The notes under the pieces were generated by a model. That model was not told where the DNA came from, did not search any database, and was given only the letters and a program-made list of their open reading frames with translations. From positions 64,001 through 128,000 of the IMG/VR virus record IMGVR_UViG_3300009506_000002: a stretch of DNA of 64,000 bases; one strand, given 5' to 3'. Position numbers and translations under genes: made by a program. The first letter of the stretch is position 1. Each line of letters starts with the position of its first letter. The stretch comes from a virus. This document shows, piece by piece, positions 10,799 through 32,821 of this stretch.

Positions 10799-10821
10799 TA
10801 TTTATACGGCTCCCATAAATA
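10799..10821. promoter_or_regulatory. back-to-back T4-type late promoters (TATAAATA on -, CATAAATA on +)
   Basis: tatttata 10799-10806 and cataaata 10814-10821, between the divergent gp48 and gp4 genes. Confidence 0.8.
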
Positions 10822-20089: not shown

Positions 20090-20269
20090 CTAGGTTGCTT
20101 CCAGCGCTTCTGGAGGAACGTCGGTCATTGGTTGAACACTTACCAACTCATCTGCTATCATCTGTGGGATAGCTTTTCGTAGACGTGCGATCTCCTCAGG
20201 ATCGATTTTGCCGTGAGGATCGAAATGGCTATATCCGCCATTGATACGATCTTCGTGGTTGTCAGCCAT
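20090..20269 (-). CDS. 59-aa protein carrying a major-capsid (gp23) Gol-region-like motif
   Basis: LRKAIPQMIADELVSVQPMT; ATG at 20269. Confidence 0.6.
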   Translation of the reverse strand: MADNHEDRINGGYSHFDPHGKIDPEEIARLRKAIPQMIADELVSVQPMTDVPPEALEAT

Positions 20270-20606
20270 TGAGGATCTGCACTTCGCCTTCGCGAACGTC
20301 TTCTTGATCAGTGACAACTTTCTTGCCATCAGACTCGCCGACAACTTCACGCTCGACCACCGACTTCGGACCCTTGTAGTCCTTCAGGTCTTTTGTGGTG
20401 ATGATGCCTGAACCGTGTACCATTGCGTCATCCATGTCTTTCTCCTTTTCCGTAACTTCAATCCTGAATGTTGCTCCAGGGTGAGGGTGTGGCATTGGCT
20501 CAACTCCCTCAATAATCTCCGCAAAGCTGAAAGGTTGCAGAGGAGGCATGACCCATAAATTGACAGGAGGGAAGCGTAGGTCAGGCCAGTTGATCCTTAA
20601 TCCCAC
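20262..20606 (-). CDS. hypothetical protein
   Basis: ORF in operon; weak EIIEGVEPM motif. Confidence 0.5.
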   Translation of the reverse strand: MGLRINWPDLRFPPVNLWVMPPLQPFSFAEIIEGVEPMPHPHPGATFRIEVTEKEKDMDDAMVHGSGIITTKDLKDYKGPKSVVEREVVGESDGKKVVTDQEDVREGEVQILNG

Positions 20607-27568: not shown

Positions 27569-27625
27569 AACTCCTGTTCACTCACTCAATGGTGATATTC
27601 TAGCACAAAAGGTGCCGTTTGTCAA
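27569..27625 (-). promoter_or_regulatory. early promoter plus leader cassette
   Basis: TTGACA-17-TAGAAT..ATTGAGTGAGTGAACAGGAGTT. Confidence 0.82.
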
Positions 27626-28923: not shown

Positions 28924-29475
28924 TTATTGGTTGTCCTCCTTCTTGATCAGGTCGTCGACACTTTCCCACTTGCTTTCAGTCTCATTCCAGACCTGTCGCA
29001 GGTACCTTGCGCCGTTTGTGGTGATGTACTCACCTTCACTCCAGGTGTCACCGCGATCGATCAGCTCGATGCCGCGGATTGAAGTATTTTCCCCGCTTTC
29101 ACCTGGGTGCTTGTGTTTGATTTCCAGTACACATCGGATGCGCAGGCCCCCTCGTCCAGTGAATCGGACAATGCTGCCTACCTTCAGGTTCTCGCGTGCC
29201 CAACGTTCACGGCGCTGGTCAGCATCCTGCTTCTTCTGGCGAGTCTCTTTGCGGATACGGTCGTCATCAGGACGAAGCATTATTGCCAGAGCGCCAACAT
29301 CGAGGTTGATCTCCAGAATGCGCTTCTCGAGCTTGCGCTTTTCCTCAAGAAGAGTCTTTTGTTGCGCACGCCAATCGGTTACGTTACGACCAAGTCTGCC
29401 AGTGGCAATGACTTCTGCGCAGCGCTCTTCTTTCAGGCGCTTCTCGCGCTCGTATGGTGATTCCCAACGTCTCAT
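28924..29475 (-). CDS. hypothetical coiled-coil/SH3-like protein
   Basis: ORF in operon. Confidence 0.55.
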   Translation of the reverse strand: MRRWESPYEREKRLKEERCAEVIATGRLGRNVTDWRAQQKTLLEEKRKLEKRILEINLDVGALAIMLRPDDDRIRKETRQKKQDADQRRERWARENLKVGSIVRFTGRGGLRIRCVLEIKHKHPGESGENTSIRGIELIDRGDTWSEGEYITTNGARYLRQVWNETESKWESVDDLIKKEDNQ

Positions 29476-29478
29476 GAT

Positions 29479-29856
29479 TTACTCTACCTCTCCGGTGTAG
29501 AATCCAATGCCTACAATTTTCTGAATCTCGACGACACTGTCGTTCAATTTGCCAATGCTCGAAAGGCCAGTGAACATAGACTTGTCGTTTTCAATGATTG
29601 ATTTAATCAATGCTCCCGCAGGGGTATCGAGAATTTTGATACTTGCGATGATATTGCCATCGTCATCCATGCGCATCGACTCAACGATGTGAGATGCTCT
29701 TGATGGATCATCTGTTAAACCATCAAAGGTGCAGACAGCCGGACCCTTGAACTCTTCGACTGCTTTGCGCAGTGTCTCCTCAGGATAAATGCGACCATAC
29801 GTTGACGTTGGAACGCCTGCCTTTGGAAGATCAATATTGTATTCTTTTGTCATCAT
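29479..29856 (-). CDS. stand-alone prohead protease gp21-like paralogue
   Basis: GRIYP.E.L..AV, SRASH.V, KILDTP.G...K..I, GLSS.G. Confidence 0.72.
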   Translation of the reverse strand: MMTKEYNIDLPKAGVPTSTYGRIYPEETLRKAVEEFKGPAVCTFDGLTDDPSRASHIVESMRMDDDGNIIASIKILDTPAGALIKSIIENDKSMFTGLSSIGKLNDSVVEIQKIVGIGFYTGEVE

Positions 29857-30293
29857 TTACCCCAGTCGAGTTTCAGTGGTTCAACATAAACCAGATTTGC
29901 TTCCAAAGCAGGAATATTTATTGGCTTGCCATCAGGCCGCCAGTCTCCAACATCGTAACTCAAGGTCACGTGCGGGACGAAGTTGTCATACGCATGAGGG
30001 TAGCCTCTGCTTAACCATTCCTCATGGCGGCGCTGAATTCCAGGACTATCGAGTACCAGCACAAGGACATTGCCCGATTCAGTAGGCCATACCTCAAGAT
30101 ACCACGGCAGCGCAGTGAAATTGACTACTTCCCGGATATGTGGCGCTTCCGTGCGCTCCGTACAGTAAAGTACAGTGCTATGAAGCATTCCTTTAGGAAC
30201 CGGGTTAGGAACCTGAATTTCTCGCGCAAAGCGATGTAAGTTACCCATGGATCGGCCATTGTATTTCACTCCTACGTAGACGCCGTCAGTCAT
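29853..30293 (-). CDS. acb1: anti-CBASS 2H phosphodiesterase (T4 57B/Acb1 family)
   Basis: G.YV, VPNPVP...HST..Y, LEVW.T..G..LVLVLDS, PH.TLSY.VG, EPLKLDW: two HxT motifs, collinear with T4 Acb1 as recalled. Confidence 0.88.
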   Translation of the reverse strand: MTDGVYVGVKYNGRSMGNLHRFAREIQVPNPVPKGMLHSTVLYCTERTEAPHIREVVNFTALPWYLEVWPTESGNVLVLVLDSPGIQRRHEEWLSRGYPHAYDNFVPHVTLSYDVGDWRPDGKPINIPALEANLVYVEPLKLDWGK

Positions 30294-30314
30294 GACGCGC
30301 TCTCAACATTGTTG

Positions 30315-30343
30315 ATTCTAGCACGAACGGCTCCTTTTGTCAA
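30315..30343 (-). promoter_or_regulatory. early promoter driving acb1 and the protease paralogue
   Basis: TTGACA-17-TAGAAT. Confidence 0.8.
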
Positions 30344-31863: not shown

Positions 31864-31892
31864 ATTCTACACTAAAACGGTGCCGTTGTCAA
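31864..31892 (-). promoter_or_regulatory. early promoter
   Basis: TTGACA-17-TAGAAT; the -35 supplies the upstream stop. Confidence 0.8.
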
Positions 31893-32365
31893 GCACTTTC
31901 TGGCGCGTCGAGGTTCCAAGGATATTTGACGATCTCGTCGGTGATGACGTTGTGGAAATAGTCAGGAATGAAATCTGACTTGGCTCGCAGGTCAATGGTT
32001 GCGGTGTATGTTTTGACGCCGTGGCCTTCAAGTGCTTTGACCAGTTGGCAGAGTGTATTGCCAGTGTCTGAGATGTCGTCGATGATCAACATGCACAGGT
32101 CTTCTGGGTTTGGTGCTTTGTCACAGTCAGGCGCGTGGATGTGGAGCTCTTTGGTTGGCATCATCCCACGACCTGCAGGAGAGGAGTAGAACGTGATTGT
32201 CAGTGGGAGGTCGAAGTAGTAGGCGACCATCGTAGCGGGAACAAGGCCACCACGCGCCACACCCAGGACATGAGTGATGCCAGAGTAACGGAAGCGGTTA
32301 AAGACGTTCCGCGTGAACTTGTCAATATCTTCGTGGGTACGGGATAGGATCGTTCTGCTCGTCAT
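31889..32365 (-). CDS. type I phosphoribosyltransferase
   Basis: GVARGGLVPA; PRPP-binding LIIDDISDTGNTL; YPW. Confidence 0.85.
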   Translation of the reverse strand: MTSRTILSRTHEDIDKFTRNVFNRFRYSGITHVLGVARGGLVPATMVAYYFDLPLTITFYSSPAGRGMMPTKELHIHAPDCDKAPNPEDLCMLIIDDISDTGNTLCQLVKALEGHGVKTYTATIDLRAKSDFIPDYFHNVITDEIVKYPWNLDAPESA

Positions 32366-32821
32366 GTTTTCTCCACCATTCATTTATCAGCTCCGCACGT
32401 TCGGGCGTGCAGAAGTAGTCATCAAGGCATCCGCCATCTTCACAGACGGGGCAAACTGGCACATCGAAGTAGCCTGTCTCCCAGTCTCCGTCTTGCTCCA
32501 TAGGGCAGTCAGCAATCAGGAACTCACCGCCACAGTCAGAGCAGCGCGCCATGTCACATGAAGGTAGACGCTTTGATTCCTGAATCTGATCGAAGATCTT
32601 CATCAGATCAGGATGACCTGATTCAGTCAACGGCATATCATCCGACATCAGGAACTTCCCAAAGTGAAAGCAGGCGCAGACCTTCTTTGAAGTCAACCTT
32701 GGGTTGTGTCAGTGTCTCCCATTGCTAACGACGCTCTTCAGCACATGAAGGAGGGCAGCAAAGGTGACCACAATAAGGGCATGATTTTGGCATAGGTATA
32801 ATAAACTCCTTCTGAGTGCTA

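Follow-up and report, generated by a model that had tools for sequence, protein, structure and literature searches.

The analysed stretch of viral DNA (64,000 nucleotides, hereafter the window) carries, directly behind the gene acb1, a gene whose 125-aa product is a shortened paralogue of gp21, the prohead protease of T4-type phages, and is referred to here as mini-gp21. It is near certain that mini-gp21 is a homologue of gp21 and that it is catalytically inactive. Sequence comparison places it among a large group of unannotated viral pseudoproteases (the minis), in which the catalytic triad is generally lost. An anti-CBASS reading of acb1 together with mini-gp21 may be regarded as plausible on the analysis presented here.

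The window corresponds to bases 64001-128000 of an IMG/VR record of 142,377 bp with direct terminal repeats. The phage is T4-like, with a 142-kb genome. Its full-length gp21 (216 aa, with an intact catalytic triad) is present in the head module, adjoins the scaffold and gp23 genes, and has 54% identity to cyanomyovirus gp21. The best identity of its gp23 in IMG/VR is 83%, and identity to the nearest long contigs is ~50%; the top two gp23 relatives, at 83% and 61% identity, are each represented by an 11-kb fragment. A search of cultured phages at the DNA level identified nothing near-identical to the window. In a k-mer protein search with the acb1 product and mini-gp21, each query retrieved itself alone, and single-sequence scans of IMG/VR with mini-gp21 and with Acb1 returned zero relatives.

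The acb1 gene (29853..30293, minus strand) encodes a 146-aa 2H phosphoesterase that matches phrog_755 and Pfam PF23474 (E 3.5e-29; 101.8 bits, cut-off 27), with residues 3-145 covering profile positions 1-142 of 144. Two H-x-T/S motifs are present, H38-S-T40 and H108-V-T110. The product resembles Acb1/T4 gp57B in its full-length HMM match and paired motifs, but it is only ~39% identical to the RB69/T4-type proteins (39-40% to the 57B gene of RB69-like phages). On these criteria, it is an ordinary member of the Acb1 family. It is the sole Acb1 match across this genome, and Acb1-like sequence is present in 1,356 of 50,697 phage records. The Acb1 enzyme family degrades the cyclic-nucleotide signals of CBASS.

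A sigma-70-type early promoter (TTGACA-17-TAGAAT with an extended -10 TG; 30315..30343, minus strand), matching 11 of 12 consensus positions, opens the transcription unit. The window has 12 promoters of the type TTGACA-N17-TAGA[AC]T where 0.04 would be expected; each of them is on the minus strand, and the spacer AACGG..CCGTTTCGTG is common to many of them. The acb1 region is thus clearly organised as a series of early transcription units. Of the T4-type late motif TATAAATA, the window has a single copy, at position 10799, and none was found close to acb1 and mini-gp21. The two genes therefore belong to one early transcript and open an early operon driven by the host RNA polymerase. No promoter or terminator was detected on the minus strand from 30315 to 27787, and the next promoter of the TTGACA-N17-TAGA[AC]T type (27597..27625, minus strand) likely marks the end of the acb1 transcription unit.

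The acb1 and mini-gp21 genes overlap in an ATGA at 29853..29856 on the minus strand (TGA at 29855..29853, ATG at 29856..29854), a GGGG run is located 5-8 bases upstream of the mini-gp21 ATG, and the two genes are probably translationally coupled. Four-base overlaps are found in at least eight gene pairs in the window, where tight packing is usual, so the overlap is nothing special and the coupling says little on function. A 183-aa ORF (28924..29475, minus strand) is probably carried on the same early transcript, as it starts 3 bases past the mini-gp21 stop; it showed no significant family match, with a sub-threshold match to Pfam MIX23 (E 0.1). A preliminary description of the region had noted the TTGACA-17-TAGAAT promoter before acb1, the two HxT motifs and the ATGA overlap into a 125-aa ORF; the promoter was seen at 30343..30315 on the minus strand, the motifs (HST and HVT) were borne out within the PF23474 match, and the coordinates of the overlap agree.

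The mini-gp21 gene (29479..29856, minus strand) encodes a protein matching residues 37-173 of T4 gp21. The motifs on which the preliminary description had based the assignment as a gp21 paralogue (GRIYP, ASH, ILDTP.G and GLSS) are all present, as G21RIYP, A54SH56, I75LDTPAG81 and G97LSSIG102. The protein matches phrog_207 (head maturation protease) with an E-value of 1.4e-9, the phage's own gp21 by BLASTP (E 5e-10, 28% identity), cyanophage gp21 genes by tblastn, and gp21 by profile-profile comparison with hhalign (probability 99.9%, E 4e-33). A Pfam search with the mini-gp21 of the window gave no match at E <= 1, PF03420 included. It had been considered that the paralogue might be the only gp21 in the genome; this is not the case, as the genome has two phrog_207 matches, mini-gp21 and the 216-aa gp21 of the head module, about 52 kb apart.

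An AlphaFold model of mini-gp21, computed with 62 family sequences, had a pLDDT of 90.8 and a pTM of 0.81. The best structural match by far was T4 gp21 (PDB 5JBL), with a Foldseek TM of 0.78 and, in VIA-align, a Z of 13.0 and an rmsd of 2.1 Å over 118 aligned residues, pairing model residues 1-123 with gp21 residues 37-173. Herpesvirus proteases were the next structural matches, with a VIA-align Z of 7 or below. As modelled, mini-gp21 represents a near-whole gp21 protease core without the N-terminal extension or the C-terminal 40-65 residues. A capsid-targeting sequence at its N-terminus was considered and ruled out, the N-terminus being strand 1 of the barrel. In common with T4 gp21 (Peptidase_S77, PF03420, 5JBL), mini-gp21 has a beta-barrel, herpesvirus-protease-like fold and the motifs GRIYP, SH and LDTPxG. 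It differs in its length (125 aa compared to 212-216 aa), in its missing terminal regions and in its location in an early accessory region, not the late head module.

The triad of T4 gp21 consists of His, Ser and Asp (PMC5694885), which in T4 numbering are H85, S140 and D168. All three residues were present in 59 of 59 full-length gp21 sequences; the 5JBL construct has Ala at both the His and the Ser positions. In mini-gp21, unlike in T4 gp21, the His85 loop is deleted, with no His before residue 56, and Gly occupies both of the remaining columns (Gly97 for Ser140 and Gly118 for Asp168), an assignment on which MAFFT, hhalign and the family HMM aligned to 5JBL agree. A single dissenting alignment (hmmalign with the full-length HMM) places Ser99 of mini-gp21 in the Ser140 column, with the His and Asp still missing. 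The SSIG of mini-gp21 had previously been described as standing in for the usual SSRG; the resemblance is present, but the register is ambiguous, since in three alignments SSIG sits two residues out of register with SSRG and Gly97 takes the serine position. With the catalytic His and Asp gone and the Ser at best displaced, mini-gp21 is a pseudoprotease.

The family to which mini-gp21 belongs was examined by a HMMER search of 1.84 billion cluster representatives, which identified 184 proteins at E <= 1e-3, mostly 105-170 aa in length, viral and unannotated. The closest relative is an independent metagenomic protein with 46% identity. Among the aligned family members, 38 of 62 matched Pfam S77 at E < 0.01. 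The catalytic His is present in 6 of the 135 minis of <= 170 aa, the Ser in 22 and the Asp in 28; none of the 135 has all three residues, and 85 have none of them. The clusters closest to mini-gp21 in the ESM Atlas are all viral; among the nearest 30, 18 were unannotated and virus-only, and three of these comprise proteins of 124-154 aa with 57-67 members each. A FastTree analysis of 128 shared columns parted 126 full-length gp21 sequences from 142 minis by one branch with a support of 0.96, a split that is subject to sampling bias from how both sequence sets were gathered. Allowing for this bias, the clean split suggests that the minis are an established lineage and not repeated recent truncations.

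The preliminary description had also raised the possibility of a repurposed early protease that cleaves host defence proteins, which would require a rebuilt active site, with His56 paired to Ser99 or Ser100, for instance. His56, in the ASH motif, is retained in 124 of 135 minis, and a pair of serines is present in both mini-gp21 and its closest relative (P0002), at the Ser column in one alignment. Set against this, full-length gp21 retains His56 to the same degree (57 of 59) and T4 has Ile in its place, so the role of this residue is structural and not catalytic. In addition, the Ser is unconserved at both candidate columns across the mini family, the loop bearing the catalytic His is deleted, the Asp168 position is Gly, and the full triad is kept by no mini. 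An active protease is thus very improbable, and the proposal was rejected. That mini-gp21 is instead a decaying, functionless duplicate of gp21 would fit its truncation, the loss of its catalytic residues and its 28% identity to the phage's own gp21, but its reading frame is intact, its fold model is confident, it has 46% identity to an independent metagenomic protein, and it falls in a large conserved family apart from real gp21. Decay is extremely improbable on this evidence, and the existence of a separate conserved family indicates that mini-gp21 is no recent copy of the phage's own gp21.

The genomic context of other minis was analysed in three scans (A2, A4 and A5), which returned 77, 65 and 80 loci, mostly full-length gp21, and only 2, 4 and 1 complete minis, respectively. 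L142 and L058 represent one contig stretch, so the scans yield six loci in five distinct contexts. The mini at L058/L142 follows ThyX. At L139, the mini is coupled behind an ADP-ribosylglycohydrolase (ARH) gene and precedes genes for NADAR, a Nudix/NrtR protein and an RnlA-type ligase. The mini at L145 is located directly 3' of a truncated 296-aa Gp23-like ORF, the one at L170 sits in a tRNA cluster, and LR756511 encodes a fused 297-aa form near a gene that is NADAR-like by eye. No Acb1 was found beside the minis within the fragments at L058/L142, L139, L145, L170 and LR756511. The minis that could be placed occupy accessory regions and not head modules. The variety of these contexts (ThyX, tRNA cluster, truncated gp23) fits a role unrelated to CBASS equally well.

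A second gp21 or mini was also sought in other T4-like phages. The 24 T4-like IMG/VR records identified by way of gp21 have one gp21 each and no mini, and of the 80 closest gp23 relatives, the five long records contain a single gp21 but neither a mini nor Acb1; three of these 29 mini-free records are 93-100% complete. In cultured phages, 2,607 gp21 matches were present in 2,603 records, such that a second gp21-like gene is almost never seen. As this also applies to cultured T4-like phages that carry Acb1, a protease paralogue beside acb1 should be rare among them.

Among cultured phages, minis were identified by tblastn in the jumbo phages of Eneladusvirus only, namely Serratia phage BF, the Erwinia phages pEa_SNUABM_* and Yersinia phages fHe-Yen9-03/04; they include gp116 of Serratia phage BF (154 aa) and g109 of Yersinia phage fHe-Yen9-04 (144 aa). 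These proteins belong to the same family as mini-gp21 (A1 HMM, E 4e-26 for gp116), group with the minis in the phylogeny and, like mini-gp21, represent a second gp21-like gene. They differ in that gp116 of Serratia phage BF has lost the His alone, with SSRG and the Asp retained. The BF mini has 18% identity to mini-gp21 of the window, at a tree distance of 2.85 substitutions per site. In BF, gp110 is an Acb1 (PF23474, E 3.6e-15) that lies upstream of the mini on the same strand (~4 kb, six genes), and it forms part of an island encoding Nampt, Acb1, a zinc-binding protein, SIR2, a Nudix/cREC protein, a membrane protein, PhoH and the mini. The cREC part of the Nudix protein is a cyclic-phosphate-processing domain. 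The Eneladusvirus Acb1 is very divergent from that of the window. Two distant lineages thus bring the uncommon Acb1 and mini genes together, which is suggestive. Two instances are too few to establish a rule, and clustering is to be expected of accessory genes in any case. With respect to the neighbourhood of acb1, which it had been suggested to analyse for short gp21 paralogues, direct adjacency was seen in this genome only, whereas co-location within ~4 kb was found in one distant lineage.

A link between prohead proteases and CBASS is reported for T4 in a 2026 preprint, in which gp21 suffices to activate a type II CBASS (PMC12991175). The protease cuts the activation loop of the CD-NTase, and its active site is required; protease-sensitive loops of this kind are present in about 24% of CBASS operons (PMC12991175). 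The earlier statement that prohead proteases trigger CBASS therefore has a literature basis, but the accompanying term "sensor decoy" is not appropriate, as the reported sensor responds to cleavage and not to the protein. For a copy that does not cut, the only ways to act would thus be to shield the loop or to poison gp21. A literature search retrieved no description of an inactive gp21 copy that serves in immune evasion.

A counter-defence role for mini-gp21, in which it would blunt host surveillance of prohead-protease activity, is a tentative proposal that falls somewhat short of an even chance. Given its early expression and missing C-terminal region, mini-gp21 would probably be a cytoplasmic, non-cutting mimic of gp21, and would not be located inside the prohead. 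It may occupy protease-sensitive tripwire loops, of which the activation loop of the CD-NTase is one example, and prevent the cut; alternatively, it may draw free gp21 into inactive mixed oligomers until the protease is incorporated into the prohead. Acb1 would then clear the residual signal, such that the alarm is prevented first and the signal erased second. It is rather unlikely that such a role is aimed at CBASS specifically, and we similarly consider it doubtful that the minis are dedicated inhibitors of protease-sensing immunity that form a two-layer module with Acb1. Deletion of the catalytic-His loop may also damage any substrate-binding groove, which counts against a counter-defence role.

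If the preprint holds and CBASS is switched on by the head protease, phages face a dilemma, as this protease is indispensable. Dead protease look-alikes that form a widespread family, are made early and are encoded near Acb1 in two distant lineages would be a candidate escape at the sensing step and, if this is true, the minis would be the first anti-CBASS factor working at that step. Even without a link to CBASS, the analysis defines a large unannotated viral pseudoprotease family, with 184 HMMER matches and many Atlas clusters.

The same observations could also be explained without any functional link, with mini-gp21 a conserved accessory protein that has some other binding role (to a ligand or nucleic acid, for instance, or in regulating an unrelated host process) and adjoins acb1 by packing. 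The number of four-base overlaps in the window and the start of the next gene 3 bases past the mini-gp21 stop are consistent with this, as are the positions of other minis beside ThyX, tRNA genes, a gp23 fragment and ARH/NADAR genes, with no Acb1, and the fact that giant-phage cryptic proteases have been without an assigned role since 2017. Against coincidence, two mini branches separated by 2.85 substitutions per site are both near Acb1, Acb1-like sequence is carried by only a small minority of phage records (1,356/50,697), and the activity of the parent enzyme is a reported CBASS trigger. We give the absence of a functional link about the same weight as the counter-defence role, as a real possibility that we would not favour over its negation. 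A role in morphogenesis, in which the dead copy tunes head assembly (through gp21 restraint, as a chaperone or through protease copy number) and has no part in immunity, is more doubtful. The gp21 protease is a pentamer that is kept inactive by its N-terminus (PMC9958956) before assembly, T4 encodes the gp21 inhibitor Inh, and mini-gp21 retains nearly the whole core fold, which makes mixed oligomers conceivable. T4 Inh is annotated as restraining gp21, as in one of the mechanisms proposed for mini-gp21; it is an annotated head protein of 226 aa, and the likeness is by annotation alone. The promoter of mini-gp21 is of the early type and distant from the head genes, and a late promoter was not found close by. 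A mini is missing in 29 further T4-like records and in almost every cultured T4-like phage, which indicates that it is not needed for head assembly. A morphogenetic role is thus unlikely.

Protease paralogues of a comparable type have been reported previously. A 2017 study of giant phages reported cryptic proteases (SPN3US gp117, 201phi2-1 gp206 of 145 aa and PhiPA3 gp143 of 136 aa), paralogues that are truncated and presumably inactive, and assigned them no function (PMC5694885). Like mini-gp21, they are a second, C-terminally truncated copy beside the real enzyme; by the published description, their catalytic His is also unaligned and they are of about 135-145 aa. They differ in belonging to giant phiKZ-like phages and in being extremely diverged from T4 gp21, whereas mini-gp21 is of the T4/cyanophage gp21 type, is encoded by a 142-kb T4-like phage and is coupled to acb1. 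Mini-gp21 is a variant of these known but unexplained protease paralogues, now with a directly testable hypothesis, and through it the cryptic-protease observation, made in giant phages, also covers ordinary T4-like phages. In BFVD, the mini-gp21 model has proteins of ~140-146 aa from cultured jumbo phages among its neighbours by structure.

The TTGACA-N17-TAGA[AC]T motif constituted a phage-specific early promoter family, with 12 sites identified by a motif scan of the window, all on the minus strand (18364, 26168, 27029, 27597, 30315, 31864, 32822, 35607, 42260, 43635, 46035 and 47580). A spacer of the form AACGGnnCCGTTTCGTG, which comprises a small dyad followed by a T run, was common to many of the promoter copies. 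By its sequence, this spacer resembles a terminator or operator placed inside the promoter; one early promoter copy (31896-31880) was scored as terminator-like in a scan of the window.

The early unit of acb1 and mini-gp21, the truncated paralogue of the prohead protease, also contains a 183-aa ORF (28924-29475, minus strand), which starts 3 bases past the mini-gp21 stop codon. This ORF had no match in PHROGs, and Pfam returned only a sub-threshold match to MIX23 (E 0.1, below the cut-off). Its N-terminal half is charged and, by eye, looks like a coiled coil. A type I phosphoribosyltransferase of 164 aa (31889-32383, minus strand; PF00156, E 1.5e-16) has its own early promoter copy and lies upstream of both acb1 and the gene for the RnlA-type ligase.

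The early region of the window also encodes an 86-aa gp23-like ORF (20090-20350, minus strand). A BLASTP comparison with the major capsid protein gp23 of the same phage aligned residues 31-76 of the ORF with gp23 residues 54-93 (35% identity, E 6e-7). Pfam scored the Gp23 match at 19.1 bits, which falls short of its cut-off (24.4). The stretch common to both proteins contains AIPQMIADELVSVQPM, and the matched part of gp23 is presumably the region named Gol by T4 workers. Together with mini-gp21, the ORF would bring the number of miniature head-protein copies in this phage to two. Two cut-down head-protein copies, with no head module around them, were likewise observed in the metagenome contig JACCDV011279280.1 (locus L145, plus strand). 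A truncated Gp23-like ORF of 296 aa (1283-2173), matching PF07068 over profile positions 130-311 of 376 (E 2.4e-12), shares its last bases with the beginning of a mini-gp21 ORF of 145 aa (2163-2600).

In the metagenome contig Ga0233415_10002155 (L139:2-1517, plus strand), a 158-aa mini-gp21 is flanked 5' by an ADP-ribosylglycohydrolase gene, with a 4-base overlap at the stop codon of that gene, and 3' by a NADAR gene. Beyond NADAR, the downstream genes include one for a Nudix/NrtR-type protein and one for an RnlA-type RNA ligase. A fused form of the family was identified in the uncultured 595-kb phage LR756511.1 (L081:5872-6765, plus strand), as a 297-aa ORF with a mini-gp21-type domain at residues 42-172 (E 1e-36 with A1, an HMM of the family). 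The N-terminus of this ORF is hydrophobic and signal-like, and its C-terminus is extended by ~125 aa. The LR756511.1 genome has a second gp21-like match.

Among cultured jumbo phages, an accessory island comprising, in this order, Nampt, Acb1, a phage zinc-binding protein, SIR2, Nudix-cREC_REC, a membrane protein, PhoH and mini-gp21 was conserved between Serratia phage BF (56521-66925; L330) and Yersinia phage fHe-Yen9-04 (L331), and has the appearance of a counter-defence island. The Acb1 is annotated as "RNA ligase", and the Nudix is fused to a cyclic-phosphate-processing cREC_REC domain.
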